From positions 1 to 17,113 of the forward strand of contig CALFVM010000270.1 in assembly GCA_937928665.1 (NCBI GenBank): 17,113 nt of DNA, written 5' to 3'. Below the pieces are notes generated by a model, which was not told the DNA's origin, did not search any database, and saw only the letters and a list, made by a program, of their open reading frames with translations. The position numbers and the translations under genes are program-made. Each line of letters starts with the position of its first letter. The stretch's first letter is position 1. Below, in pieces: positions 723-17,113 of this stretch. This DNA is from an uncultured Candidatus Methylacidiphilales bacterium. Lineage in GTDB: Bacteria > Verrucomicrobiota > Verrucomicrobiia > Methylacidiphilales > CALFVM01.

Positions 723-2204
723 TCAAACGCGCCGCCGCCACCAGACAGCGACACCGATGATCGCAATCAATCCGGGAACCACCACCAGGACCAGCAGAGC
801 GATCTTTTCCTGCTGCTCGGGCAACAGGGATGTCTTGAATTCAGTCGGTTCTTTCGGAGCGATGCCCAGGGCGTCTTCCTGCCCCACGAGCCAGTTGACC
901 ACATTGACGGCGAAGTCCACCTGCATCGTTCCGAGATTTTCATTGATCAGAAAAGCTGCTCCGCCAACCGCCACAGCTTTCGGCACGGCCAGGTCCACAT
1001 CCAGTCCTTCCACCGCTCCAACCTCAATGGCAGCCGCCAGCGTCAGTGGACCACGGGTGTCCTTGCCCTCGTCAAACTGGACGCCCTCCTTATCCTTTTC
1101 CGTCTCCCCCCAATAAGATTCCGGCGTGCGGACAAGTGCCGTTCCTTTCGCCGCCTCCCCCTCTGCGGGTGGACCGAGCACGAGAGAGCGACAGGCACCC
1201 AGGACCAGGTTGGCACCGAGGTTGCGGGCCCAGTCAATCGCCGGGTGGGCGGCAAACGTGGTGCCGATGGCGTCCGCCAAAATCCGGGTTTGGCCCAGCA
1301 TCGAAACCCGGGTCAGAGCCAGGTCATTGGCAAAAGTGAGTCCGTAAGGCGCAAAGAAATCTTCCAACCCGGAAGACGTTTCCGGATCGAGCATGATGAG
1401 CAGTTTGCCCGGCTTTTCTCCCAGAAAATAGGCCCGCAGCAGATCAATCTCCCCCTGGGTAAACCGGCTGCGCGGCCCGGCTACCACCACCAGGTCCGCG
1501 TCCGGCGGCACACCACCCTGCTCAGCCAGGTTGATCCGGAAAAGGTCGGCGTTTTGGCGTCGGAGATAGGAGCCGATCAGGGAATAGCTCATCCGCTCAT
1601 TGTCCGGTGCCAGCGGGTTGAATTCACCGTGGCCGGAGGTGAAATAGATTTTTTTTGTTTCACCCCGGACAAGCTGCTGAATGGCCGACGTGATTTCGCG
1701 TTCGCCCTTGAAGGCCACGAGGCGGGGCGGGCTACCGAACATCTCCCCGGAAGCATCGACCTCGGCTAAATCCGCCAGGCGAAGGACCTTGGAACGCTCC
1801 GCATACTCGACAATGACTACGTTTTCGTTGGTGGCGAGTTTGAACGTCTCCACAATGCCCCGGGCATCGTCGAAATTGATGAAGGGATCAATACGCCGGA
1901 CTTCGATCCGCCCGTTGCTGTTGTAGCGGTATTGGTCGAGGAGATCGAGAAGATCGCTCTGGACAAGAGGTGCCAATGGGTCGCCCTGAGGGGCAATGAA
2001 AGCGGTCAGGGTGACCGGCCCGGGCAGGTCGCGCACGACGTTGATCGACAGCTCGGAGAGCTTGACGTAATCAATCGGTGAGAGGTTGGTGCGTTTGAAG
2101 TATTTGTAGTTGAGGAACTGGGCGGCGGCGAAGATGACCAGCACCAGACCGATACTGATCCAATGATTGGTCCGCCAGCGAGCCCGTGTGTTTTTCTGCG
2201 CCAT
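723..2204 (-). CDS. GldG-like ABC-type transport system auxiliary component (ABC_transp_aux domain)
   Basis: 493-aa ORF. N-terminal TM helix is followed by ...KRTNLSPIDYVKLSELSINVVRDLPGPVTLTAFIAP..., which fits the GldG N-terminal signature. A C-terminal TM anchor (IALLVLVVVPGLIAIIGVAVWWRRR) follows. It sits directly downstream of the ABC-2 permease and ATPase genes. Confidence 0.8.
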   Translation of the reverse strand: MAQKNTRARWRTNHWISIGLVLVIFAAAQFLNYKYFKRTNLSPIDYVKLSELSINVVRDLPGPVTLTAFIAPQGDPLAPLVQSDLLDLLDQYRYNSNGRIEVRRIDPFINFDDARGIVETFKLATNENVVIVEYAERSKVLRLADLAEVDASGEMFGSPPRLVAFKGEREITSAIQQLVRGETKKIYFTSGHGEFNPLAPDNERMSYSLIGSYLRRQNADLFRINLAEQGGVPPDADLVVVAGPRSRFTQGEIDLLRAYFLGEKPGKLLIMLDPETSSGLEDFFAPYGLTFANDLALTRVSMLGQTRILADAIGTTFAAHPAIDWARNLGANLVLGACRSLVLGPPAEGEAAKGTALVRTPESYWGETEKDKEGVQFDEGKDTRGPLTLAAAIEVGAVEGLDVDLAVPKAVAVGGAAFLINENLGTMQVDFAVNVVNWLVGQEDALGIAPKEPTEFKTSLLPEQQEKIALLVLVVVPGLIAIIGVAVWWRRRV

Positions 2205-2216
2205 AACCGGTGCCCC

Positions 2217-2969
2217 CTAATTTTTCAGCCGCCGCCCCGCCAGGGCCCGCTCGGTCAGGAAAAGAAACAGCACTGCCCCGGAGAGATAGAGAATCACCGG
2301 GCGCGAATCAAAGGTGCCGTTGGCAAACAGGCGCATGTGGTTGAGTGACGAGATGTAATTGACCAACTCTTCCAACTGCGGATTGACGGTGAAGAAACCG
2401 AGGAAGCTGCAAAAGAAAAGCAGCGCGATCCCGGCAAACGCCAGGACCGCCGCCACCACCTGGTTTCGCGTGAGGGAGGAGGCGAAAAGGCCGATGGAAA
2501 TGTAAAAGGCACCAATGAGGAGGACCATGGCATAGCCCAGGAAGAGCGGTCCCCACTGCACCGGCGTCACATGACCCGTCAGGAATTGATAGATCGTGTA
2601 GAAAAGAGCACTCGGCACCCAGAGCAAAACGTAAAACAAAAATGCGGCCGTGAACTTGGCAATGACCACATCCCACTCACTCACCGGGGCGGTCAAAAGC
2701 GGCTCGACCGTCCCGGATTTGAACTCTTCGCTGAAAAGACGCATCGTCAAAATCGGGACAAACAAAATCAAGGCGAACCAGAAGAAGAACCAATTGAAGA
2801 AAATGAACATGATGGTGACGTTCTTTACCCCCTGCTGCATCGCCTCAACACACAGGGTGAAAGAAAACCCGTGCAACAGGGCAAAACAAGTCAGGAGCAC
2901 ATAGGCAATCGGCGAGAAAAGAATCGCTCCCAGTTCCCGCTTGGTCTGGACCAAAATGGTTCGGATCAT
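2217..2969 (-). CDS. ABC-2 family transporter permease (GldF-like)
   Basis: 250 aa, about six hydrophobic segments and the ABC-2 permease signature FSEEFKSGTVEPLLTAPVS. It lies between the ATPase and GldG-like genes with gaps of a few nt only, so operon-like. Confidence 0.8.
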   Translation of the reverse strand: MIRTILVQTKRELGAILFSPIAYVLLTCFALLHGFSFTLCVEAMQQGVKNVTIMFIFFNWFFFWFALILFVPILTMRLFSEEFKSGTVEPLLTAPVSEWDVVIAKFTAAFLFYVLLWVPSALFYTIYQFLTGHVTPVQWGPLFLGYAMVLLIGAFYISIGLFASSLTRNQVVAAVLAFAGIALLFFCSFLGFFTVNPQLEELVNYISSLNHMRLFANGTFDSRPVILYLSGAVLFLFLTERALAGRRLKN

Positions 2970-2973
2970 CCGC

Positions 2974-3900
2974 TCACTCCTGGGTTAGTTCCACAAAAAC
3001 GTCTTCGAGCGTTGGCTTGGCATAGCGAAACTCGCCCAGCGGCCACCGCTTGTCTTTAATCAGTTCATCCACGGTCCGCCGAACATCTTTCCCCGGCTTG
3101 GCCAGGCACTCGAGCTGAACCCAACCATCTGCCTCGCCCCGGATGTCCACCTGTCCAACGTCCGGCAACGCCTCAAGGGCCGCTTTGGCCTCGGCTCCCG
3201 CCACCTTGAGTTCGAGAAACAAGGAACCGCTCCGGACCCGTTTGGACAAATTCTCCAGCGTGTCCGAGGCCTCAATCCTGCCGCGGTTGATGATGATGGC
3301 ACGCGAGCAAACCATCTCGACCTCCGGCAGAATGTGCGTCGAAAGCAAAATTGTCCGGTCTTTGCCCAGCTCCTTGATCAGGTCGCGCACGGCGCGGATT
3401 TGGTTGGGGTCCAGCCCGGCGGTCGGCTCGTCTAAAATCAGTAGCTCCGGCTCGTGCACAATCGCATCGGCCAGACCAACCCGCTGCCGGTAGCCCCGGG
3501 ACAGAGCTCCGATCATTTTCCGGGACACGTCCGTAATGCCGCAACGCGCCAGGGCGTCGGAAACGCGATTCCGCAGCCCGCGACCCCGGATTCCCTTGAG
3601 GGCAGCCCGGTATTCCACATATTCCCGCACCCGCATGTCCATGTAGAGAGGCACATTCTCCGGCATGTAGCCCACCTTCCGCCGCACCTCCCGCGAGTTC
3701 TCCAGCAGATCAAGCCCAGCCACACTCACCTCTCCGGAAGTCGCCGGGAGAAAGCCAGTCAGGATCCGCATCGTCGTGCTTTTCCCGGCACCGTTGGGGC
3801 CGAGGAACCCGACGACTTCTCCCCGATTCACCGCAAAGCTGATCCCCTGAACAGCGGTTTGGCCCGCGTATTTCTTGACGAGGTTTTTGACATCGATCAT
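2974..3900 (-). CDS. ABC transporter ATP-binding protein (GldA-like)
   Basis: Walker A GPNGAGKST, ABC signature LSRGYRQRV, Walker B LLILDEPTAGLD and H-loop STH are present. I moved the start to the ATG at 3900 (MIDVKNLVKKYAG...). The 83-codon N-terminal extension in the ORF track (to 4149) is Gly/Arg-rich, non-ABC-like and would overlap the 3' end of thiC. Confidence 0.85.
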   Translation of the reverse strand: MIDVKNLVKKYAGQTAVQGISFAVNRGEVVGFLGPNGAGKSTTMRILTGFLPATSGEVSVAGLDLLENSREVRRKVGYMPENVPLYMDMRVREYVEYRAALKGIRGRGLRNRVSDALARCGITDVSRKMIGALSRGYRQRVGLADAIVHEPELLILDEPTAGLDPNQIRAVRDLIKELGKDRTILLSTHILPEVEMVCSRAIIINRGRIEASDTLENLSKRVRSGSLFLELKVAGAEAKAALEALPDVGQVDIRGEADGWVQLECLAKPGKDVRRTVDELIKDKRWPLGEFRYAKPTLEDVFVELTQE

Positions 3901-3916
3901 GGCGGATGAAGACGAA

Positions 3917-3946
3917 AAAAATATGGACCAGCCCAACTGTGTCAAG
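3917..3946 (-). promoter_or_regulatory. Candidate sigma70-like promoter for the ABC-2 transporter operon
   Basis: Minus-strand TTGACA (plus 3940-3945), a 16-nt spacer, then TATTTT (plus 3918-3923). The element sits in an unusually AT-rich island (gacgaaaaaaatatgg) between thiC and the ABC ATPase gene. Confidence 0.25.
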
Positions 3947-4007
3947 GTTGCATCTTCCGCCCGACCGGATCCCCCCTGGATTTTCCCTGCCGGCACCCGG
4001 GCCAACC

Positions 4008-6098
<2,091 letters not shown>

Positions 6099-6644
6099 TC
6101 AATTTTCCGCCGCACCAATCACCATCGCACGGAACGCCGCCTCGGCCTCACCCATGGCGGTGGCCGGACCCGTCATCCGCACAAAAACGTTTCCCCCGGC
6201 TCCCTCAAGAATCGCCCCCAACAACACCGTGTCCGGCACCGGCGTTGTCGGACCTCCCGGCATTCCGCTCGCGTAAGTCCCGGACGCACGGACAAAGGTC
6301 ACCCTGTTCCCGCCGATTTCTTCGGTCTCGACCTTCTCTTCTTTCCGGTCGCTCACCTGGCCCAGCCAACGCGCCACGTTATCCTGGGCCGAGCCGCCCT
6401 GGCCCGGGCCAAAAAAGAAAAAGACCGCCTCCCCCTTCCCATCCGGCGAACGAAGTTCGGCCTTCCGCATCGGGGAATCAGGGACCCGGTGCGCCCAGCC
6501 CTCCGGAACCGCGAAGCGGAACGGTCCGACCTGAAAGGCTTCTTCCGCTCCGTGGACCCGCCCTCCGAAAGCCACCAGCATGGCGGCTCCCAGTGCCATC
6601 CACCTATTCCGCCGCGTCCAAACCAAACCGCTTGCTCCATTCAT
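6099..6644 (-). CDS. Hypothetical small secreted/periplasmic protein
   Basis: Start chosen at the ATG at 6644, preceded by GGAGG plus a 6-nt spacer. N-terminus MNGASGLVWTRRNRWMALGAAMLVAFGGRVHG|AEE looks like a signal peptide (basic n-region, hydrophobic core, small-residue c-region). G-ending codon usage resembles neighbouring genes. An alternative start (MALGAA, 6599) would avoid the 41-nt overlap with the upstream gene. No recognisable domain. Confidence 0.5.
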   Translation of the reverse strand: MNGASGLVWTRRNRWMALGAAMLVAFGGRVHGAEEAFQVGPFRFAVPEGWAHRVPDSPMRKAELRSPDGKGEAVFFFFGPGQGGSAQDNVARWLGQVSDRKEEKVETEEIGGNRVTFVRASGTYASGMPGGPTTPVPDTVLLGAILEGAGGNVFVRMTGPATAMGEAEAAFRAMVIGAAEN

Positions 6645-6831
6645 CAACAACCTCCACACGGATGAGAGAAAGCCGCTCATAATCCCGTTCGACCTGGTCC
6701 TCCGTCCATCGCGGGTGAGAATCCCGGATGATCTGCAGGGTCCAGGCGCGGGCGATTTCAATATCGCTGCGGGTCAGCCGGGTGACCGCACGCCGATAAA
6801 GCAGGTCGTTAAATCGGCTGGTGACTTCCAT
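6604..6831 (-). CDS. Hypothetical small protein (about 75 aa)
   Basis: MEVTSRFNDLLYRRAVTRLTRSDIEIARAWTLQIIRDSHPRWTEDQVERDYERLSLIRVEVVDEWSKRFGLDAAE. Codon usage looks typical downstream of this ATG and turns to rare-looking codons (AGG/CGA/CTA/ACA) upstream, so I trimmed the 131-aa track ORF. RBS is weak and there is no recognisable domain. Confidence 0.35.
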   Translation of the reverse strand: MEVTSRFNDLLYRRAVTRLTRSDIEIARAWTLQIIRDSHPRWTEDQVERDYERLSLIRVEVVDEWSKRFGLDAAE

Positions 6832-6932
6832 CAAACGCACGCCCCGGAGCTTATCCGGTCGGAACCCATCGCGCAAGGCCCGTGCCGGATGCCCTTTGAC
6901 AACCCCGCTTACCCGGTCTAGCTCTGCCTCGC

Positions 6933-7310
6933 ATGTCCGATCCTGTCCAACTCCGCCACCGGGCCGAACGGCTCCTGGTCGATTTGGCCTCCCGATCACG
7001 GGCCCGACCCGGGCTGTTTCCTGTCCGCCACGTTGAGGATTTTCTGGCCATCATCGGCGACCGCCTCGGCTGGCAACCCGGCACCACCCTGGCTGACACA
7101 TCCGATTCGGCTGCCCTCTCCGCCTTCTGCGACCTCGCCCGCCAACTCGATTCCCATCCCGAACAATCCCATCACTGGTTCGCGTTAAGCCAGCTCCGGC
7201 GAGGCTTCCCTCCCCTTCACGCAGCCGCCTCTCCCGTCCCACCCGAGACTGAGGCAGCCCGGGATTCGTCCCTCAAACACGCCGTCCACCCAAAAACAGT
7301 CCGGCCGTAA
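6933..7310 (+). CDS. Hypothetical protein (125 aa)
   Basis: The only sizeable ORF in the 500-nt gap between the minus-strand genes ending at 6831 and 7334. It is C-ending codon-rich, especially in the first half. No homology recognised. It could be spurious. Confidence 0.3.
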   Translation: MSDPVQLRHRAERLLVDLASRSRARPGLFPVRHVEDFLAIIGDRLGWQPGTTLADTSDSAALSAFCDLARQLDSHPEQSHHWFALSQLRRGFPPLHAAASPVPPETEAARDSSLKHAVHPKTVRP

Positions 7311-7333
7311 GGCTCCCGCTACTCTCCCGCCGG

Positions 7334-8650
7334 TCAATCCCAAGCCGTGTCCGGTTCGAAATCCCGGATATATTGAACCCCGACCAACGCCCGCCGGATC
7401 GTGCTCCCATCCAGCAGATGGCGCATATCCAAAAACCTGCCCGCATCGATCACCCGCTGCACTTCCGCCTCCACCCGCCCCGGCGCTTCAGCCAGTGGCA
7501 ACGGGTCAAACACCACCGCATGATTGTGCAGCATCTCCGTCTGCGACCCCGTATTGGCCGGGTTCACATAAAAGGTGGCCTTCAGACTGGCCTGATCGAA
7601 AACCCCCAGATCACACGTCAAATCCAGCCCCGCTCCCGTCAACAGCCCCGTGATATTCCGGTGCCGCGGCGTCCGGTCCGCCTCAAACCACTGCGGGTAA
7701 TTGGACGGATCGGTAATCGGCAAGCCATTGGCCGGAGCAAAACGAGCGATCGGCGCTTTCACCACCCCGGCACCCAGCAACGCCGGCATCTCCGCCACCA
7801 CGGCCAATCCCAGCGCCCCCCGGAACGTCGGCCGCCGGGCCTTGGCAAAATCAAACAACACCCGGTAAAGCCCGCTGATCGTCAGGCCCGTCTCCGCATC
7901 CGCCGCCCGCACGTCGGCATAATCATGGAACGGGCCGGGCAGCGAAGCATTGAAGCCGGTCCGGATGGTCACCTGCCCCCGGTCATGTCTTGGAATCAAG
8001 TAATCCGGCGTGTCATTCCCATCCGTCGGCAGCCACACCATCGTCCCCGCCATTGTGATCATCTCCCCCATCAGCGGCAGACACGCCTCTACCGATGAGC
8101 CCAGGGCACCCAGCCCGATCGAATACGCGGTCCCGGAAAAAGATTTCGACCGCACCTCCGCTTCCGTGATCCGCGCCGCCAGGACATCCTTGATGTCTCC
8201 GGCAATTCGAATCACGGCCTCTCCTTCCTCAGCGGGCAGAACCCGAATCTCCGCCGTGCCAGGCACTACCCACCGCTCCGCCCCGCTCCAATCCAACTCA
8301 ACAGGCTCTCCCTTCACCCCAGAACCCGCCACCAGATCGTCCAACCCCGCCATATCCAGCACCTCCGCCACGTAGGGCCGAAGATTAACCAAAAGCAACT
8401 CGTGCCCCGCCGCCCGTTGGCCTTTCCAGGCCGTCACCAAAACCCGCACCCCTGCGGAACTGAGATAATCGACCCCGCCAAAATCCAGCGTCAACAGCTC
8501 CGGCCCCGAGGCCACCGCCGCACGAATCACCGGCTCCAACTCACCCGCCCCATGCGCGTCAAGTCGCCCCTCAAGCCGATACATCATTTGGTGCGGACCG
8601 GAACCGGAATCAGAAACAACTTTAAAGGGCATCCACTGAGGTTGCCCCAC
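7334..8650 (-). CDS. STAS-domain (anti-sigma-factor-antagonist-like) protein fused to a ~330-aa C-terminal domain of unknown function
   Basis: N-terminal ~110 aa: ...YRLEGRLDAHGAGELEPVIRAAVASGPELLTLDFGGVDYLSSAGVRVLVTAWKGQRAAGHELLLVNLRPYVAEVLDMAGLD. That is a SpoIIAA/STAS-like pattern (pre-established contrast, DxxxV..SSAG, short inhibitory tail). The GTG start at 8650 follows GGAGGG plus a 6-nt spacer; an in-frame ATG lies at 8633. The remaining ~330 aa have no motif I recognise. Confidence 0.7.
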   Translation of the reverse strand: MGQPQWMPFKVVSDSGSGPHQMMYRLEGRLDAHGAGELEPVIRAAVASGPELLTLDFGGVDYLSSAGVRVLVTAWKGQRAAGHELLLVNLRPYVAEVLDMAGLDDLVAGSGVKGEPVELDWSGAERWVVPGTAEIRVLPAEEGEAVIRIAGDIKDVLAARITEAEVRSKSFSGTAYSIGLGALGSSVEACLPLMGEMITMAGTMVWLPTDGNDTPDYLIPRHDRGQVTIRTGFNASLPGPFHDYADVRAADAETGLTISGLYRVLFDFAKARRPTFRGALGLAVVAEMPALLGAGVVKAPIARFAPANGLPITDPSNYPQWFEADRTPRHRNITGLLTGAGLDLTCDLGVFDQASLKATFYVNPANTGSQTEMLHNHAVVFDPLPLAEAPGRVEAEVQRVIDAGRFLDMRHLLDGSTIRRALVGVQYIRDFEPDTAWD

Positions 8651-8729
8651 TTCGCACCCTCCGACAAGGTTGCCGACCGACCCACGCCTTCCTTGTCCTC
8701 CACCGACTCCCCCCGTTAATGTTTCCCGG

Positions 8730-10037
8730 ATGCCCGCCGAAAAACCTCAACCCTCAGACGGTGCTCGCGCCGCCGTGGGCGTCCTCCTTGTCGGCCTCCT
8801 GGCCGCAGGCGCGGCTGAGAGCTTCGCCGGTGCCATTGACCTGATCTACACCAACGGAATCGAGCGCCTGGCCGCCCTGCCCCTCCCCTGGTTTCTGGCC
8901 GGTTCCTTGTTCATCGTTCTCTCCACCAGCGCGGCTGCCGGCTGGTTGATGTTCAAGTTTTGCCCGGAAGCTGCCGGCAGCGGCATCCCCCAAGTCAAGG
9001 TCGCCTACCTCGAAGGCCGGAACGGCATCCCCTTCCGCATCGTCTGGGTCAAGTTCCTCGCCGGTGCCCTCAGTATCGGCGGCGGCGCCAGCCTCGGGCG
9101 CGAAGGCCCCACCGTTCAAGTCGCCGCCGGACTGGCTTCCTGCCTCGCCCGCCACCTTCCCGCCTTCCGCCTCTCCCAGGGTGCCGCCCTCGCCGCTGGC
9201 AGCGCCGCCGGTTTGGCCGCCGCCTTCAAAGCACCCCTCTCCGCCGGAACCTTCTTCCTCGAGGAAATCGCCGGAGAACTCAAATCCCCATTCGTCTGGG
9301 CGGCCCTTCTTGGAGCCATCGCCGCCTCCGTCTTCCTCCGGGAATCCCTCGGCCAGTTGGCCGAAATCCAGATGGCCCCGCTCCGTGCGCCCGAGGGCTG
9401 GACCTGGCTCTGGATGATCCCGGTCGGGGCCCTCGCCGCCTTCATCGGCATGATTTTCCAACGGGGTGCTCTCGCCCTGCGCGGACGGGTTGCCGGCAAG
9501 CTTCCGGTCCCGCGCTGGACTCTGCCCATCTTCGGCGGAACCGCCACCTGGCTCCTCGGCGTCTCTGTCTTCATCAACACCGGACACCTCGGCGTCTTCG
9601 GACTCGGCTACCCCGACATGCTGGCCGCCCTCCACGGCGAAATCCTCTGGAACGCCGCCGCCCTTCTCGTGGCGGCCAAGCTCCTCGCCACCATCGCCAG
9701 CTACGGCCTCGGCGGTTGCGGCGGCATCTTCTCCCCGCTCCTCTGCCTCGGCGTCCTCACCGGCGCAGCCGCCTGCGGCGGCATCACCCTCGTCCAACCC
9801 CTCTCGCAAAACGACGCCACCGCCCTCATGCTCGTCGGCATGGGCGCCTGCATTGGTGCCGTCCTCCGCGCCCCGCTCACCTCCATCCTCATCGTCTTCG
9901 AAATGACCCGCGAGGCCCAAATGCTCCCCGGCCTGATGCTCGCCACCCTCGTTGCCCAGACCATCGCCCGCGTCATGGCCCGCGAGAACTTCTACGCCGC
10001 CCTCCTCCGCCAGGACGGCCATCCCCTGACCCAATAA
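8730..10037 (+). CDS. ClC-family chloride channel / H+-Cl- exchanger (EriC-like, no CBS domains)
   Basis: About 10-12 hydrophobic helices with ClC signature motifs GSGIP (AAGSGIPQVK), GREGP (gating-Glu position) and GGIFSP (GxFxP). I chose the first ATG (8730, MPAEKPQ...). The TTG at 8670 in the ORF track would leave only 19 nt for the divergent intergenic region. Confidence 0.85.
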   Translation: MPAEKPQPSDGARAAVGVLLVGLLAAGAAESFAGAIDLIYTNGIERLAALPLPWFLAGSLFIVLSTSAAAGWLMFKFCPEAAGSGIPQVKVAYLEGRNGIPFRIVWVKFLAGALSIGGGASLGREGPTVQVAAGLASCLARHLPAFRLSQGAALAAGSAAGLAAAFKAPLSAGTFFLEEIAGELKSPFVWAALLGAIAASVFLRESLGQLAEIQMAPLRAPEGWTWLWMIPVGALAAFIGMIFQRGALALRGRVAGKLPVPRWTLPIFGGTATWLLGVSVFINTGHLGVFGLGYPDMLAALHGEILWNAAALLVAAKLLATIASYGLGGCGGIFSPLLCLGVLTGAAACGGITLVQPLSQNDATALMLVGMGACIGAVLRAPLTSILIVFEMTREAQMLPGLMLATLVAQTIARVMARENFYAALLRQDGHPLTQ

Positions 10038-10143
10038 GGGTCAACCCGCCTCCAACCGTCCTGTGACAATCCGGTTGCGTGCAACAACCCGCTTGTCACT
10101 CACCCCTCTGCGCCACAACCTACCCGCTCACCCCGAAAAAAAC

Positions 10144-10148
10144 AGGAG
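10144..10148 (+). promoter_or_regulatory. Shine-Dalgarno AGGAG for the flotillin-like gene
   Basis: aaacAGGAGcttccc-ATG: a 6-nt spacer to the ATG at 10155. It is one of the few clear SD sequences in the window. Confidence 0.5.
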
Positions 10149-10154
10149 CTTCCC

Positions 10155-12140
10155 ATGTCACTGCTCGATCTCTTCAACCTCGCCATGATCGCCGCCGGCA
10201 TCATCGTTGCCCTCGTCGTCCTCTTTGTCATCGTCCGCCTTCTCTTCGCCTACGGCTTCCGCAAGGTCGATCAGGGCCAGGCTCTCGTCCGTAACGGCGT
10301 CGGTGGCACCCAGGTCTCCTTCTCCGGCATGGCCTTCTTCCCCGCTTTCCACGTCCTTGAAATCATGGATATCTCCGTCAAACGCGTCGAAATCGACCGC
10401 GGCGGAGCCACCGGCCTGATCTGCCGTGACAACCTCCGCGCCGACATCAAAGTCGCCTTCTTCGTCCGCGTCAACAACACCACCGAAGACGTCAAGCGTG
10501 TCGCCCAAACCATCGGCTGCGCCCGCGCCTCCGACATCAAAGCACTCGTCGAGCTCTTCGACGCCAAATTCTCCGAAGCCCTCAAAACCGTCGGCCGCCG
10601 CTTCGACTTCGTTGACCTCTATAACTCCCGCGAAAAGTTCAAAGAAGAACTCCTCCAAATCATCGGCACCGATCTCAACGGCTACACCCTGGACGACGCC
10701 GCCATCGATTACCTTGAACAAACCAAAATCGAACTCCTCGATCCCGAAAACATCCTCGATTCTGAGGGGATCAAGAAAATCACCGATCAGACCGCCCAAC
10801 AAAAAATCCTGACCAACCAAATCAACTGCGACCGGGAAAAAACCATTACCCAGCAGAACGTCGAAGCCCGCGAAGCCGTGCTTGAACTCGAGCGCCAGCT
10901 CGCCGAGGCCGAACAAAAACAACAGCGCGAAATCGCCGCCATCAAGGCCCGCGAAGAAGCCGAAACCGCCAAGGTCCAGCAGGAAGAACGCCTCAAATCC
11001 GAACGCGCCCGCCTCATCACCGAGGAAGAGGTCAAAGTCGCCGAAGAAAACCTCCAGCGCCAGGTCATCGTCGCCCTCCGCAACAAGGAGCGGACCGACG
11101 CGGTCGAAAAAGAACGGGTCGAAAAAGACCGCCTCCTCGAGGTCAACGAGCGCGAGCGCATCGTCACCCTCGCCGAAATCGAAAAAGAAAAAGCCATCGA
11201 GACCGAGCGCAAAGAAATCCAGGAAGTCATCCGCGACCGCGTCATGGTCCAGAAAACCGTCGTGGCTGAACAGGAACGGATCAAAGACACCGAAGCCTTT
11301 GCGGAGGCCGACCGTATCCGCCGCGTCAAAATCACCCAGGCCGAAGCCGAGGCCGATGCCCTCCTCGTCCAGGAAATCAAAGCCGCTGAAGCCGCCAAAA
11401 AAGCCGCCGAACTCAAAGCCCAACAAGAAATCATCGAGGCCGAGGCCCACAAAGACGCCGCCACCCTCGCCGCCGAAGGTAAAAAACAACTCGCCGAAGG
11501 CGTCACTGCCGAGACCGCTGCCCCCGGCCTAGCCGAAGCCCACGTCCTCGAAGCCAAAGCCCAAGCCGTCCGCGAGCAGGGCACCGCCGAGGCCGACGTC
11601 CTCCGCGCCAAAGCCGCGGCCGAAGCCGAGGGCATCACCGCCAAGGCCGAAGCCATGAAACTGTTCGACGGCGTCGGGCGCGAACATGAAGAGTTCAAAC
11701 TCAAGCTCAACGTCGAGCGCGACCTCCGCCTCGCCGAAATCCACATCCGCAAAGACATCGCCGAACAGCAGGCCGCCGTCCTCGGCGAAGCCCTCCAAAG
11801 CGCCAAGATCGAAATCATCGGCGGTGAACACCAGTTCTTCGACCGGATCGCCAACGCCGTGGGCACCGGCAAAACCGTCGACCGCCTCTTCGACCACAGC
11901 GGCATCCTCTCCTCCGTCCATGAGACCTTCTTCAACGAAGATCCCGACGCCTTCAAAACCCAGCTCCGCCGCCTCGTCGATCAATTTGGCCTGGCCAGTG
12001 AAGACCTCAAAAACCTCTCCATCGCCGGAGCCATCGGCCAGCTCCTCGCCCGCTCCACTGACGAATCCCAGCGCACCCAGCTCCGGCACCTCTCCGCCCT
12101 CGGCCAAAAACTCGGACTTCTCCAGCAGCCCGCCGCCTAA
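10155..12140 (+). CDS. Flotillin-like SPFH/band-7 domain membrane protein (YqiK/FloT-like)
   Basis: N-terminal TM helix (MIAAGIIVALVVLFVIVRLLF) and an SPFH-like domain (KVDQGQALVRNGVGG...FFPAFHVLEIMDISVKRVEI...IKVAFFVRV). A ~300-aa Glu/Ala/Lys/Arg-rich coiled coil with EA repeats and a C-terminal globular tail follow. This is the flotillin architecture. Confidence 0.85.
   Translation: MSLLDLFNLAMIAAGIIVALVVLFVIVRLLFAYGFRKVDQGQALVRNGVGGTQVSFSGMAFFPAFHVLEIMDISVKRVEIDRGGATGLICRDNLRADIKVAFFVRVNNTTEDVKRVAQTIGCARASDIKALVELFDAKFSEALKTVGRRFDFVDLYNSREKFKEELLQIIGTDLNGYTLDDAAIDYLEQTKIELLDPENILDSEGIKKITDQTAQQKILTNQINCDREKTITQQNVEAREAVLELERQLAEAEQKQQREIAAIKAREEAETAKVQQEERLKSERARLITEEEVKVAEENLQRQVIVALRNKERTDAVEKERVEKDRLLEVNERERIVTLAEIEKEKAIETERKEIQEVIRDRVMVQKTVVAEQERIKDTEAFAEADRIRRVKITQAEAEADALLVQEIKAAEAAKKAAELKAQQEIIEAEAHKDAATLAAEGKKQLAEGVTAETAAPGLAEAHVLEAKAQAVREQGTAEADVLRAKAAAEAEGITAKAEAMKLFDGVGREHEEFKLKLNVERDLRLAEIHIRKDIAEQQAAVLGEALQSAKIEIIGGEHQFFDRIANAVGTGKTVDRLFDHSGILSSVHETFFNEDPDAFKTQLRRLVDQFGLASEDLKNLSIAGAIGQLLARSTDESQRTQLRHLSALGQKLGLLQQPAA
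11290..11680 (+). repeat. Low-complexity codon repeats (gcc-gaa-gcc / gcc-gag-gcc) encoding the flotillin Glu/Ala-rich coiled coil
   Basis: Short degenerate tandem repeats of gccgaagcc/gccgaggcc, visible in phrases like AEAEADALLVQEIKAAEAAKKAAELKAQQEIIEAEAH and LEAKAQAVREQGTAEADVLRAKAAAEAEGITAKAEA. It lies inside the CDS and is not a mobile or CRISPR repeat. Confidence 0.5.
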
Positions 12141-12155
12141 GCCGGCCCCCACGCC

Positions 12156-15100
12156 ATGGCCCAGGCGCTCGAAGTCGGCACCTACGAAATCATCCGCGAT
12201 CGGCTCAAAGCCCGCGCGGTTGAACTCCGCGACCGGCTCAAACAACTCAACGCCGCCCGCAAAGAAACTTTCGGCACCCTCGAGTTCAAGCTCCAGCACA
12301 GCGATCGCGTCACTACCGAACACAACTGCACCCCGCGCGACATCGTCGCCCTCGGCTCCGACACCTTCCTCTTTGGCTACAACGTCCAGTTCGGACTCAA
12401 AACCGAAACCGACCTCAGCGACGTCTTCGCCCTTTACGCTTACCAGGACGGCGCCTTCCACCCGCTCCCTCTCGACCTTCTCCGCTCCAACGAGTTCGAA
12501 TCCGACTTCAAAAACCTCTACAAATATTACCGCCACACCACCCTTTCCAAATTCCGCCTCGACGGGCCCCACCTCTACATGGCCTTCCAGGTCGGCAAAT
12601 CCGTCGATGACCTCAAAACGTTTAAGTGGCTCCTCGCCGATGGCCAGCTCACCTACCTCGGCAACCGCTTCGATCACGAGTTCAAGTTCCCGCCCCTCTA
12701 CCAGTTCGACTGGAAACGGGCCACCCGCGACAGCTTCCGCTCCGGCAAACACCCCCACGTCTCGATCGAAGATCAAGTCTTCATCGATACCCTCGGCGGC
12801 ACCCTCACCATCAAAGCCGAGGACAACACCGCCTCGGGCACCGGCCTTTACCAAGAACCCGTCGACAACAAAGACCAGACCCTTGACGACGCTGAAATCT
12901 TCTACGCCCGGCTCGGTCACCTCACCGTCCTGAAAGTCAAACCCTACCAGGAACGCAACTACCGCTATTTCATCTACAACCGTAAAGCGGCTCACGCCGT
13001 CCGCCTCGACGCCCTCGGCTGGTCCTGCGCCCTCCTACCCGAAGATCAGGGCCTTATCTTCCCCGGCGGCTACTACCTCGCCACCGGCGATTACAAACTC
13101 TTCGACGGCGACTTTGCCGACATGATCTTCTCCCGACGCATCGACGCCCCTAATGGCGAGGACTCCCTCTACGTCTTCTATCACCGCGCCACCGGCACCT
13201 ACGCCCACCTCTCCTACAACCGCATCACCCAGACAACCGCCTCACCCCACTTCTGCAACGGCTACGCCCTCTTCCCCTCCGGTCGCATGTTCCTCTTTCG
13301 TGCCGAGCGCGAACCCCAGAAACATCACACCCTCCAAATCTGGCAAACCCCCTACCTCGGTCGCAACGTCGTTCTCGAACCCAAAACCGATTCCTTCCTC
13401 GCCAAACTCGGCAATAGCACCGTCGTCTCCGCCCTCGCCGAAGCCAACGAAATCCTCCACCTCCTCGAACGCGACGACATCTACGACGAACTCTACCTTG
13501 ACCTCGTCCGCCGCACCACCGCCGTCTCCGACGCCTACTTCTGGCTCGGTGATCCCGCCGCCTTCGGCCTCAAGGAAACCCTCCTCGACATCAAGACCGC
13601 CGCCGGAAACGCCCTCGACGAATTCGCCAAAGTCCGCGCCATCCAAAAATCGACCGCCGCCGACATCGATGCCGCCGCCACCGACACCGAAACCGCCCTC
13701 CGCGCCATCGTCCCCCATAACCTCACCGCCATCGACCACTTCGTCGCCCACCTCGCCTCTCTCCGCGGCCTCCGCGGCCGTCTCATCTCCCTCAAAGAGC
13801 TCCGCTACGCCGACCTCCCCCGCATCGAAACCCTCGAACAACGGGTCACCGAAAAAACCGCCGACCTCTCCAATCAAACCGTCGCCTTCCTCCTCGAACC
13901 CGGCGCCCTCGGCCCCTACGAAGAACGCATCGCCGCCGCTCGCGATGCCGTCCCCGCCCTCGCCAAAGCCGCCGATGCCAACGCCCTCGAGGCCGAAATC
14001 GACAACGCCGGGCAGCAACTCGAACTCCTGATCGAAATCGTTTCCAGCCTCAAAATCGATGATTCCACCCAGACCACCCGCATCATCGAAGCCATCTCCG
14101 CCCTCTACGGCACCCTCAACCAAGTCCGCGCCGCCATCAAAAACAAAAAGCGCGATCTTCAGGGCACCGAAAGTGCCGCCCAGTTCGCCGCCCAGGTCAA
14201 ACTTCTCGAACAATCCGCCACCAACTTCCTCGACCTCGCCGATTCCCCCGCCAAATGCGATGAGTTCCTCAGCCGCCTCACCCTTCAGCTCGAGGAACTC
14301 GAAGGCCGTTACACCGACTTCGACGACTACCTCGCCGCCCTCACCGAGAAACGCCAGGAAATCTACTCCGCCTTCGAAGCCCGCAAAGTCCAGCTCCAGG
14401 AAGCCCGCGGCCGCCGCGCCGCCACCCTCGCCGCCTCCGCCGAACGACTCCTCACCACCATCCGTTCCCGCGTCGATACCCTTAAAACCCTCGACGAAAT
14501 CAACGGCTACCTCGCCGCCGACCTCATGGTCGCCAAGGTTCGCGACACCATCGCCCAACTCCTTGACATGGGCGAATCGGTCAAAGCCGACGAACTCCAG
14601 AGCCGTCTCAAAACCCTCCAACAAGACGCCGTCCGCCAGCTCAAAGATCGCCTCGACCTCTTCACCGACGGCGGCAACGTCATCCGACTCGGTGCCTACA
14701 ACTTCACCGTCAACACCCAGCCCCTCGACCTCACCGTCGTCCCCCGAGACGACACCCTCGCACTCCACATCTCCGGCACCAACTTCTTCGAACCTCTCGC
14801 CGACCCCGCCCTCACCACCCTGCGCGACGTCTGGGACCTCGAATTCCCCTCCGAATCCCCCGACGTCTATCGCGCCGAGTTCCTCGCCTTCACCCTCCTC
14901 AACGCCCTCCAAGCGGACGGCCAACTCCCCACCGCCCTCCGCTGGACCGACCCCGAACGGCTCGAAGCCGTCCGCACCTTCATGGCGCCCCGCTACCGGG
15001 AAGGCTACGTCAAAGGTGTCCACGACGCCGATGCCGCCCTCCTCCTCGGCGCCCTCCTCCGTCTCCACCACGACCTCGACACCCTCCGCTTCCCACCCGC

Positions 15101-17113
15101 CGTCCGCGCCCTCGCCCGTCTCGCCTGGGCCTCCGCGCCTCCTGCACGGCGCGACCCCCTCGCCACCCGCCTGACCAACCTCGCCCAGGCCCAAACCGCC
15201 TTTCCCAACGCCCGTCCGGCCCCCGCGCTGGTGGCCGACCTTGAAACCCTCACTACCCACGCTCTGCCCCTCATCGCCCAGTTCACCCCCGACATCTCCC
15301 CCGCCCACGCCGCCGCCTATCTCCTCGCTGAACTCTCCACCCGCCCCCACCTCCTCATCAGCCAGGAAGCCCTCGACCTCGCCACCTCCTTCACCGCATC
15401 CCTCAAAAAGAAACGCGCTTGGGACGACCTCCAGACCGCCCGGCGCAAACTTCAGAAAGAACCCGCCTCCGCCCTCGCCCTGCTTTATCCGTGGCTCGAA
15501 GCCCATCATCGGGAAGAACATCCCGATCTCCCGGCAGACTTCCTCCTGGAAGCCGCTGCCCTCCTCCACCTGGACGCCCTCGATCCCGCCTACCTCCACA
15601 ACGCTTCCCGCACCGCCACCCTCAACGACCTCCACGGCACCCATCCTTGCCTGGCCGAAAAACCCTACCGCCTCGACTACCACGCCTTCATCCAACGGCT
15701 CGCCCGGCACCGGGACGAGCTCGTGCCCCGCTTTGAACAATGCGTCCGAGCCAAACACCATGCCCTCGAACAACGGCGCCGAGACCTCCGCCTCGACGGC
15801 TTCAAACCCAAAGTCCTCACCTCCTTCGTCCGCAGCCGTCTCATCGACGAAATCTATCTCCCCCTCGTCGGTGCCAACCTCGCCAAACAAATCGGCGTCG
15901 CCGGTGAAAACAAACGGACCGACCGCTCTGGCCTCCTCCTCCTCATCTCACCCCCCGGCTACGGCAAAACCACCCTCATCGAATACGTCGCCCACCGCCT
16001 CGGCCTCGTCTTCATGAAAATCAACGGGCCTGCCCTTGGCCAAAAGGTCACCTCCCTCGACCCCGCCGACGCTCCCAACGCCGCCGCCCGCGAAGAAATC
16101 ATCAAGCTCAACCTCGCCCTCGAAATGGGGGACAACGTCCTCATCTGCATCGACGACATCCAGCACTGTTCCTCCGAGTTCCTCCAAAAGTTCATCTCCC
16201 TCTGCGACGCCCAGCGCCGCATCGAAGGCGTCTGGAACGGCCAGCCGCGCTCCCACGACCTCCGCGGCCGCAAAGTCGCCGTCGTTATGGCCGGCAACCC
16301 CTACACCGAAACCGGCGACAAATTCAACCTCCCCGACATGCTCGCCAACCGCGCCGACACCTACAATCTCGGCGACATCGTCGGCACTAACGCCTCCGCC
16401 TTCGAACAGAGCTACCTCGAAAACTGCATCACCTCCAACCCCGTCCTCCAACGACTCGCCGCTCGCGGCTCCGCTGACGTCCGCGCCGTCATCCGCATCG
16501 CCGAAACCGGCTCCCGCGACGGAGCTCGCTTCGAGGGCAACTACTCCCCCGAAGAACTCAACGAGATGGTCGCCGTCATGACCCACCTCGTCGCCGTCCG
16601 CACCATCCTCCTCCGCGTCAACCGCGAATACATCCACTCCGCCGCCCAGACCGACGCGTTCCGCACCGAGCCCCCCTTCAAACTCCAGGGCTCCTACCGC
16701 ACCATGAACCGGCTGGCCGAAAAAATCCTCCCCGTCATGACCCCGCAGGAAGTCGAGGCCCTCCTCCTCGACCAGTACAAAAACGAAGCCCAAACCCTTG
16801 CCACCGGTGCCGAGGCTAACCTCCTCAAACTCCGCGAACTCCTCGGCCTCCTCACCCCAGACGAAGCCGCCCGCTGGGACGACATCAAAAAGAAGTTTCA
16901 ACGCAACCAACTCCTCGGCGGTGCCGGAGAAAACGATCCCGTCGGCAAAGTCGTCGGCCAGCTCGCCCTCTTCCACGAAAGCCTTGAACACCTCCGCGGC
17001 ACCCTCGCCCACGGCTTTGCCCATGCCGCCGAAGCCAACGCCAAAACCGCCGTCACCCTCCCCGCAACTCCCGCCCCAAGCCCCCCATCGGCCACCGCTC
17101 CAACACCCGCCCC
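12156..17113 (+). CDS. Giant multidomain protein (at least 1652 aa, 3' end beyond the window): ~1250-aa N-terminal region of unknown function plus a C-terminal AAA_5/MoxR-like P-loop ATPase core
   Basis: ATG at 12156, 15 nt after the flotillin stop and in the same frame. Manual translation (MAQALEVGTYEIIRDRLKARAVELRDRLKQL...) hits no stop in this frame to the window end, consistent with its absence from the ORF track. Walker A LLLLISPPGYGKTTL is at ~15949-15975, Walker B NVLICIDDIQ at ~16138-16158 and sensor 1 VAVVMAGNPYTE at ~16281-16301 (AAA_5/MoxR/McrB style). The C-terminal Pro/Ala-rich linker (PATPAPSPPSATAPTPA) runs to the window end. The uniform C-ending codon bias matches the flanking genes. 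Confidence 0.75.
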   Translation, partial: MAQALEVGTYEIIRDRLKARAVELRDRLKQLNAARKETFGTLEFKLQHSDRVTTEHNCTPRDIVALGSDTFLFGYNVQFGLKTETDLSDVFALYAYQDGAFHPLPLDLLRSNEFESDFKNLYKYYRHTTLSKFRLDGPHLYMAFQVGKSVDDLKTFKWLLADGQLTYLGNRFDHEFKFPPLYQFDWKRATRDSFRSGKHPHVSIEDQVFIDTLGGTLTIKAEDNTASGTGLYQEPVDNKDQTLDDAEIFYARLGHLTVLKVKPYQERNYRYFIYNRKAAHAVRLDALGWSCALLPEDQGLIFPGGYYLATGDYKLFDGDFADMIFSRRIDAPNGEDSLYVFYHRATGTYAHLSYNRITQTTASPHFCNGYALFPSGRMFLFRAEREPQKHHTLQIWQTPYLGRNVVLEPKTDSFLAKLGNSTVVSALAEANEILHLLERDDIYDELYLDLVRRTTAVSDAYFWLGDPAAFGLKETLLDIKTAAGNALDEFAKVRAIQKSTAADIDAAATDTETALRAIVPHNLTAIDHFVAHLASLRGLRGRLISLKELRYADLPRIETLEQRVTEKTADLSNQTVAFLLEPGALGPYEERIAAARDAVPALAKAADANALEAEIDNAGQQLELLIEIVSSLKIDDSTQTTRIIEAISALYGTLNQVRAAIKNKKRDLQGTESAAQFAAQVKLLEQSATNFLDLADSPAKCDEFLSRLTLQLEELEGRYTDFDDYLAALTEKRQEIYSAFEARKVQLQEARGRRAATLAASAERLLTTIRSRVDTLKTLDEINGYLAADLMVAKVRDTIAQLLDMGESVKADELQSRLKTLQQDAVRQLKDRLDLFTDGGNVIRLGAYNFTVNTQPLDLTVVPRDDTLALHISGTNFFEPLADPALTTLRDVWDLEFPSESPDVYRAEFLAFTLLNALQADGQLPTALRWTDPERLEAVRTFMAPRYREGYVKGVHDADAALLLGALLRLHHDLDTLRFPPAVRALARLAWASAPPARRDPLATRLTNLAQAQTAFPNARPAPALVADLETLTTHALPLIAQFTPDISPAHAAAYLLAELSTRPHLLISQEALDLATSFTASLKKKRAWDDLQTARRKLQKEPASALALLYPWLEAHHREEHPDLPADFLLEAAALLHLDALDPAYLHNASRTATLNDLHGTHPCLAEKPYRLDYHAFIQRLARHRDELVPRFEQCVRAKHHALEQRRRDLRLDGFKPKVLTSFVRSRLIDEIYLPLVGANLAKQIGVAGENKRTDRSGLLLLISPPGYGKTTLIEYVAHRLGLVFMKINGPALGQKVTSLDPADAPNAAAREEIIKLNLALEMGDNVLICIDDIQHCSSEFLQKFISLCDAQRRIEGVWNGQPRSHDLRGRKVAVVMAGNPYTETGDKFNLPDMLANRADTYNLGDIVGTNASAFEQSYLENCITSNPVLQRLAARGSADVRAVIRIAETGSRDGARFEGNYSPEELNEMVAVMTHLVAVRTILLRVNREYIHSAAQTDAFRTEPPFKLQGSYRTMNRLAEKILPVMTPQEVEALLLDQYKNEAQTLATGAEANLLKLRELLGLLTPDEAARWDDIKKKFQRNQLLGGAGENDPVGKVVGQLALFHESLEHLRGTLAHGFAHAAEANAKTAVTLPATPAPSPPSATAPTPA

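Follow-up and report, generated by a model that had tools for sequence, protein, structure and literature searches.

The window described here is composed of 17,113 nucleotides (nt) of contig CALFVM010000270.1 (GenBank assembly GCA_937928665.1), from an uncultured Candidatus Methylacidiphilales bacterium. Its 3' part encodes a giant ATPase, whose gene is cut by the contig end, and, directly upstream, a flotillin-like protein. A first-pass annotation, made from the letters of the DNA and its open reading frames (ORFs), had described the N-terminal region of the giant protein, about 1,250 residues encoded at 12156–15900, as holding no recognizable motif. These residues make up the non-catalytic portion of a DUF3686–DUF7902–AAA+ family protein and are most plausibly the targeting and lever parts of an AAA+ machine associated with flotillin. 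The two genes and the parts of the ATPase are listed below, with structural features taken from AlphaFold2 (AF2) models and residues numbered from the first methionine of the ATPase.

10155–12140, forward strand: flotillin-like (YqiK-type) membrane scaffold gene, 661 amino acids (Pfam Band_7, 28.4 bits, cutoff 23.6)
12156–17113, forward strand: ORF of the giant ATPase, cut by the contig end, 1,652 amino acids present
12159–12272, forward strand: long N-terminal alpha-helix, residues 2–39 (DSSP on the AF2 model; the segment is conserved)
12222–13541, forward strand: match to Pfam DUF3686 (PF12458), residues 23–462, taking in part of the helix, the propeller, and the capping helices at 414–465
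12288–13346, forward strand: irregular beta-propeller-like domain, residues 45–397, with about 28 strands in about seven four-stranded sheets (AF2)
13554–14651, forward strand: helical rod, residues 467–832, with eleven helices of up to 58 residues (AF2)
13905–14153, forward strand: match to Pfam DUF7902 (PF25472), residues 584–666, within the rod (E=2.1e-26, 92.4 bits, cutoff 26)
14679–14795, forward strand: small beta-strand unit, residues 842–880 (DSSP, AF2 model 2, local residues 384–422)
14871–15572, forward strand: all-alpha domain, residues 906–1139, about 240 residues and the least conserved part
15612–15785, forward strand: beta-hairpin and long linker helix, residues 1153–1210, leading into the AAA+ module (AF2)
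15798–16505, forward strand: single AAA+ module (Pfam AAA, AAA_5), mostly beyond nt 15900

From the ATG at 12156, 1,652 stop-free codons run up to the last base of the window; the closest full-length relative is 1,739 amino acids long. The nearest in-frame stop 5' of this ATG is the TAA of the preceding gene, which ends at nt 12140. The ATG is supported as the start because M1, L5, G8, Y10, and E11 show little or no variation across a 60-homologue alignment. The five peptides quoted in the first-pass annotation are all found in this ORF, at residues 71–105, 269–289, 376–400, 476–498, and 705–744. The boundary at nt 15900 lies slightly too far downstream, as the AAA+ block already begins at about residue 1215 (nt ~15798).

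Two curated Pfam families cover parts of the N-terminal region. The DUF3686 match is the stronger (E=5.5e-171, 569.4 bits against a cutoff of 25) and takes in profile positions 1–448 of 448, and the DUF7902 match lies in the rod. Both are families of unknown function. The earlier statement on motifs is thus amended in that curated families do match, and it stands in that no family of known function does. Likewise, no catalytic motif had been placed, and searches of Pfam, NCBIfam, PADLOC, and the Protein Data Bank (PDB) give no known function for residues 1–1214. PDB sequence searches, with the protein by itself and with a profile of 61 family sequences, matched the Walker A region alone (p97, RuvB), and residues 1–1214 had no match. 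NCBIfam and PADLOC returned weak matches only, to the P-loop or the coiled coil.

The family is large. A search of 5.8 billion proteins (E≤1e-5) returned more than 2,780 relatives of the 1,250-residue region. Because of this number of homologues and the full-profile DUF3686 match, residues 1–1250 are, as judged from sequence, genuine coding sequence under strong constraint. The best 120 relatives are 46–67% identical over 97–100% of the 1,250 residues (100% in all but three) and are mostly 1,630–1,916 amino acids long, with a few shorter, truncated gene calls. DUF3686 and DUF7902 are present in 120 of these 120, and AAA or AAA_5 in all except one truncated call. Relatives of only 29–30% identity keep DUF3686, DUF7902, and AAA_5, and across distant phyla the giant ATPase is about 48% identical over approximately 1,700 amino acids. 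For the DUF3686 domain alone, an exhaustive HMMER scan of 1.84 billion cluster representatives gave only 703 clusters (E≤1e-3), and the domain is N-terminal in every full-length representative (1,590–2,036 amino acids). Since DUF3686 is N-terminal in the same giant architecture wherever the protein is full length, the region is not a fusion of separately known proteins.

Members of the family thus share one fixed architecture across many phyla. Named members are found in Verrucomicrobiota, Planctomycetota, Bacteroidota, Acidobacteriota, Desulfobacterota, Kiritimatiellota, and others, and the wider spread also takes in Pseudomonadota, Actinomycetota, and Deinococcota. Genera with a copy include Pseudomonas, Proteus, Vibrio, Halomonas, Deinococcus, Streptomyces, and Nonomuraea. 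By its domain content, the gene in the window is a member of this computationally described, widespread family of untested function. As the family is already catalogued and published, the window itself adds little to it.

The N-terminal part of the protein is composed of a long helix, a propeller-like domain, and capping helices at residues 414–465. The AF2 model of residues 1–475, made from a 61-sequence alignment, has a mean predicted local distance difference test score (pLDDT) of 89.5 and a predicted template-modelling score (pTM) of 0.88. The first ~430 residues had been called beta-rich, and the ~28 strands of the model bear this out. The same residues had been called rich in aromatic residues and glycine; the aromatic part is correct (F+Y+W 13.7% over residues 1–430), and glycine is only modestly represented (6.5%). 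In a fold search, the model resembles propellers in part, at identities of 5–14% among the matches listed and with only about 180 of about 350 residues superposed. No sequence similarity from blade to blade was found (hhalign probability at most 7%), and no Pfam match to WD40, Kelch, NHL, or spectrin was found in the giant ATPase. It differs from WD40, Kelch, and NHL propellers and from spectrin rods in lacking both their Pfam matches and detectable repeats. The propeller carries invariant polar motifs, namely HPHxSIED (199–206), EDNTxSGxG (222–230), DQTLDDAE (240–247), and KHHxxQIWQTP (389–399). Conservation peaks in the propeller and in residues 620–880 and has its minimum in residues 919–1200.

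The helical rod follows and is modeled together with the domains behind it (AF2 model of residues 459–1260, pLDDT 85.5). It is about 370 residues long, with helices of 20–58 residues, and part of it falls in the strongly conserved stretch at 620–880. The first-pass annotation had described the ~800 residues after the propeller as helical repeats rich in Leu, Ala, Asp, and Glu. The composition is right (L+A+D+E 45.4%, F+Y+W 6.5% over residues 431–1250) and the models are mostly helical, but the repeats are not there: hhalign between rod segments gave probabilities below 5%. Repeats of the TPR, HEAT, or Sel1 type, which had been suggested for checking, are contradicted by helices of 20–58 residues and by the lack of any Pfam match to these families at E≤0.01, as well as by the hhalign result. 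Fold matches to the rod are generic three-helix bundles and spectrin repeats, none of them significant. Behind the rod and the small beta-strand unit, residues 906–1139 have no beta strands and are thus not a degenerate AAA+ domain.

The AAA+ module has two Pfam matches over residues ~1245–1390, AAA (29.5 bits) and AAA_5 (27.5 bits, cutoff 22), each over its own cutoff. The AAA_5 match, to the 'dynein-related subfamily', covers the whole module, and the classical AAA match covers its first half only. Walker A is SPPGYGKTT (residues 1265–1273). Walker B is ICIDDIQH (residues 1330–1337, nt 16143–16166), with Asp-Asp in place of the usual Asp-Glu. Sensor 1 lies within VVMAGNPYTE (1376–1385), and a putative Arg finger lies within PDMLANRAD (1393–1401). 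The Walker A, Walker B, sensor 1, and Arg motifs are at least 95% conserved among 184 family members, and the module is predicted from them to be ATPase-competent.

The 661-residue protein encoded upstream has the layout of a flotillin: an N-terminal transmembrane helix, an SPFH/Band_7 domain, a long Glu/Ala-rich coiled coil, and a C-terminal domain. Its match to Pfam Flot is weak. Homologues are named 'flotillin family protein', 'flotillin', or 'YqiK' by their sources, and the precomputed Pfam field is empty for all 120 homologues; the current Pfam model captures the SPFH domain of this subfamily poorly. With the PDB as target, the flotillin-like family profile matched only QmcA, weakly and in the coiled coil (E=0.005). 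The gene ends 15 nt 5' of the ATG of the ATPase. The flotillin-like and giant ATPase genes also share a reading frame, with one TAA and 15 nt between them (12138–12158).

The association of the two genes was followed over 85 related loci and the window, a locus being informative for flotillin where at least 2.3 kb of upstream DNA was available. In 69 of 69 informative loci, the flotillin-like gene lies upstream of the ATPase gene and has the same orientation. Directly 5' of the flotillin-like gene, 64 of 66 informative loci encode a membrane protein of 205–310 amino acids with an acidic linker. Pfam YqiJ_N matches 11 of the 21 small membrane proteins that were scanned (best E=3.6e-8), and NfeD matches one. 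The triad of small gene, flotillin, and ATPase is kept in Deinococcus and Streptomyces. The window is one of the two loci without the YqiJ-like gene and has a ClC-type channel gene in that place:

8670–10037: ClC-type chloride channel gene (Voltage_CLC, E=4e-77), ending 118 nt before the flotillin start

The Bacteroidota cluster also contains PspA_IM30, a CesT_Tir_1/YbjN-like gene, and a divergent regulator with HTH_3 and Peptidase_S24 domains. A PspA_IM30 gene is part of the co-directional cluster in 14 of the 86 loci, all from Bacteroidota; in a 15th locus, it is on the opposite strand and elsewhere. On plasmid pQBR103 of P. fluorescens SBW25, the gene order is YjfI, PspA, rhomboid, DUF2491, DUF350, DUF1190, glutathionylspermidine synthase, hypothetical, SPFH, and ATPase. 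This pQBR103 cluster (84452–101879 of the record) is co-directional and joins two classes of PspA neighborhood that are given separately in PMC11237479.

Two gene calls join the ATPase family to its partners in one protein. In one (P0356), a flotillin C-terminus, 54% identical to residues 393–606 of the flotillin-like protein of the window, is in frame with DUF3686; this could be a natural fusion, a stop-codon read-through, or a sequencing error. The other (P0250, 1,345 amino acids) has NfeD1b_N, a ClpP-like protease domain, at residues 74–215, N-terminal to DUF3686 and DUF7902. As a single example, it ties the ATPase family to the NfeD-type partners of SPFH proteins.

This arrangement has been published. 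Ravi et al. (2024, mSystems; PMC11237479) describe a 'beta-propeller + coiled-coil + AAA-ATPase' protein in a CesT/Tir–PspA–YqiJ/YuaF–flotillin operon; abbreviated operons are said to be more widespread and are suggested to work with PspA encoded elsewhere. The supplementary row for Dokdonia ANH61663.1 in that source reads '<-cHTH+Protease CesT_Tir-> YqiJ-YuaF ...', and this gene order agrees with the arrangement reconstructed independently here. The window shares with that system the domain order of propeller, helical region, and single AAA+ module, as well as the flotillin-like gene directly upstream. It differs as an abbreviated locus without the PspA, CesT/Tir-like, and YqiJ/YuaF-like genes of the full operon. 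The pairing of NfeD/YqiJ with flotillin has long been known (PMC2636767). Neighborhoods of PspA with Band 7 and NfeD are found in Acidobacteriota, and Band 7 genes also lie beside pspA in Bacteroidota (PMC9239133). In B. subtilis, SPFH proteins are reported to link PspA to the membrane (PMC8581546). A survey of SPFH proteins in P. aeruginosa has nothing on the giant ATPase (PMC13086221), and a literature search found no paper mentioning DUF3686, PF12458, or DUF7902.

From the domains and the gene neighborhoods, and by analogy with known machines, the chances are judged to be about even that the giant ATPase is an ATP-driven remodeller of flotillin/PspA assemblies in membrane stress. It would be the cytoplasmic, ATP-driven partner of the flotillin-like scaffold. 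The AAA+ modules would oligomerize, probably as a hexameric ring, and the rod would serve as a spacer or lever. The propeller at the tip of each rod may recognize the flotillin assembly, YqiJ/NfeD-type or PspA partners, or clients. ATP hydrolysis would then assemble, remodel, or recycle polymers beneath the membrane under membrane stress, as Vps4 acts on ESCRT-III or as FtsH works with the HflK/C cage. The oligomeric state, the contact with flotillin, the substrate, and the physiological role given here are what we infer. A bolder form of the proposal is tentative and rather doubtful: an SPFH–AAA+ supercomplex on the cytoplasmic side of the membrane, in which six rods project from an AAA_5 ring and hold a flotillin dome by their propeller tips, ATP being spent on opening, moving, or dismantling the dome. 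The invariant His/Asp/Glu cluster of the propeller might sense a lipid or a ligand.

The known machines resemble this arrangement only in part. HflK/C–FtsH couples an SPFH scaffold to an AAA+ machine and is a working analogy only. Unlike FtsH, the giant ATPase has no protease domain or transmembrane segment, and its module is AAA_5-like rather than of the classical type; the scaffold is of the flotillin/YqiK type rather than HflK/C and is predicted to face the cytoplasm. With Vps4/ESCRT-III and bacterial PspA, the giant ATPase shares the idea of an AAA+ protein recycling a membrane-bound polymer and, in some phyla, the linkage to PspA; unlike Vps4, it has no MIT domain and belongs to another AAA+ clade. 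AAA_5 ATPases of the MoxR/RavA type are ~300–500 amino acids long, are paired with VWA proteins, and have a Walker B Asp-Glu, whereas the giant ATPase has a 1,200-residue N-terminal propeller and rod, a flotillin partner, and a Walker B Asp-Asp.

Several points weigh against a role in remodeling flotillin assemblies. At the counterpart of pore loop 1 (GPALGQKVTSLD), the module lacks an aromatic residue; together with the Asp-Asp of Walker B, this means that a classical substrate-threading unfoldase is not assured. Gene linkage speaks for a shared function and not for physical contact or a direction of action. The Pfam Band_7 cutoff is reached by one of 25 flotillin-like members, the copy in the window, and the SPFH assignment is marginal in that it partly draws on source names and on published profile-profile analysis. 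No YqiJ-like gene is present anywhere in the window, as searched with tblastn and with a hidden Markov model (HMM) from 64 YqiJ-like proteins, and PspA has no match in the window. The two joined proteins are single, fragmentary metagenomic gene calls. The invariant polar residues of the propeller could instead make up an active site or a site for ligands, and not a surface on which proteins dock. Lastly, no paper was found that reports an experiment on any member of the family.

The nearest rival is a role directed at PspA. In this case, the ATPase would mainly remodel polymers of PspA/IM30, the bacterial ESCRT-III, in a Vps4-like manner, and flotillin would be a recruiting platform only. PspA_IM30 in the same co-directional cluster of 14 of the 86 loci and on pQBR103 is in agreement with this, as is the operon being framed as a PspA partner system in PMC11237479. 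However, PspA is missing from most loci, including the window, while flotillin occurs in 69 of 69; Pfam detected no MIT-like domain, and the module is AAA_5-like rather than of the classical Vps4 clade. This rival is considered unlikely. A dynein- or midasin-type mechanochemical motor, in which the helical array transmits force from the AAA+ ring, had been raised in the first-pass annotation and is the least probable of the explanations weighed. The 'dynein-related' AAA_5 match does exist and spans the module. By eye, the stretch between Walker B and sensor 1 resembles the pre-sensor-1 insertion of MoxR/dynein-type AAA+ proteins, as far as can be inferred from the alignment, and Foldseek returned a non-significant match to a dynein motor domain (E=0.12, probability 0.23). 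Membership in the dynein/midasin family is nevertheless refuted by the single AAA+ module, where six are concatenated in those proteins, with residues 906–1139 being all-alpha. Moreover, the dynein structural matches are not significant, the rod is N-terminal to the ring and not an inserted stalk, and neither the window nor the precomputed Pfam lists of the 120 homologues, nearly all of which are full length, contain a MIDAS or VWA domain.

The two remaining explanations come from names and from database matches. Members of the family are called 'DNA repair ATPase' by NCBI, and the Pfam text for DUF3686 reads 'ATPase involved in DNA repair'; the protein would then be an SMC/SbcC-like coiled-coil protein acting on DNA. 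Weak matches of the coiled-coil region to LmuB (E=8.6e-7) and TrlF (E=0.008) fit this, and in Bacteroidota the divergent regulator with HTH and S24 domains is of the LexA-family type. The phrase 'ATPase involved in DNA repair' is, however, the name of SbcC in COG, which makes the label a probable coiled-coil artefact passed on by inheritance of the annotation. The SMC-like similarity is restricted to the helical rod, which is coiled-coil-like in composition; the ATPase is a C-terminal AAA+ module and not a split ABC/Rad50 head, and the N-terminus is modeled as a propeller. Pfam shows no nuclease, helicase, or DNA-binding domain, and the conserved neighbors include no DNA-repair genes and are all membrane-associated. 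A role in DNA repair is very improbable and was rejected on the architecture and the gene neighbors. Large ATPases with repeat or propeller sensors are common in conflict systems, and an anti-phage system, in which a large NTPase sensor with a propeller triggers a membrane effector, was also weighed; it is improbable. Some family copies are on megaplasmids, and PADLOC gives matches to LmuB and IetA, but in PADLOC-DB 2.0 these are weak and partial, LmuB being matched over the coiled coil only and IetA over the P-loop (E=0.002). Nothing in PADLOC matches the flotillin-like protein, and no effector domain was found. Among 50,697 phage records, there is no match. Identity of ~48% over 1,700 amino acids, with fixed architecture and neighbors, is unlike fast-diversifying defence genes. 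A defence role is thus unlikely on the combined grounds of conservation, no phage match, weak PADLOC matches only, and no effector, and membership in a known defence system was rejected on the PADLOC and phage results.

The label 'DNA repair ATPase' is not supported by anything examined here and should not serve functional inference. Among conserved bacterial proteins on which no experiment was found, this family is one of the larger, and it is tightly linked to flotillin. A dedicated ATPase partner would make the function of bacterial flotillins and the turnover of their assemblies directly testable, and cultivable hosts of the family include Hymenobacter, Streptomyces, Proteus, Vibrio, and P. 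fluorescens with pQBR103. If the SPFH–AAA+ supercomplex exists, it would be a bacterial machine for membrane repair or microdomain turnover without a characterized counterpart.

Elsewhere in the window, a thiamine pyrophosphate (TPP) riboswitch (RF00059) is located at 5959–6067 on the reverse strand (65 bits, E=4.7e-11), upstream of thiC, which was identified by ThiC_Rad_SAM (E=2.9e-185). The mechanically called ORF start of thiC, a TTG at 6095, lies upstream of the aptamer, so the ORF as called reads across the aptamer, and the true start must lie past it, downstream of nt 5959 on the reverse strand. Between the riboswitch and the next gene, about 1.2 kb (6100–7330) contains only ORFs without a Pfam match (6099–6761 reverse, 6604–6999 reverse, and 6933–7310 forward). 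The gene at 7334–8650 on the reverse strand encodes a 438-residue protein with a STAS/anti-sigma-factor antagonist domain over its first ~107 residues only; neither Pfam nor NCBIfam matches the ~330 residues after it. Over the flotillin and ATPase genes (10000–17113), the GC skew of the forward strand is -0.3 to -0.43, far stronger than over the first 6 kb; possible causes are codon or amino-acid usage and the replication strand. At 723–4149 on the reverse strand, an ABC transporter cluster of three genes encodes an ABC_tran ATPase, an ABC-2 permease, and an ABC_transp_aux/DUF7088 accessory protein.

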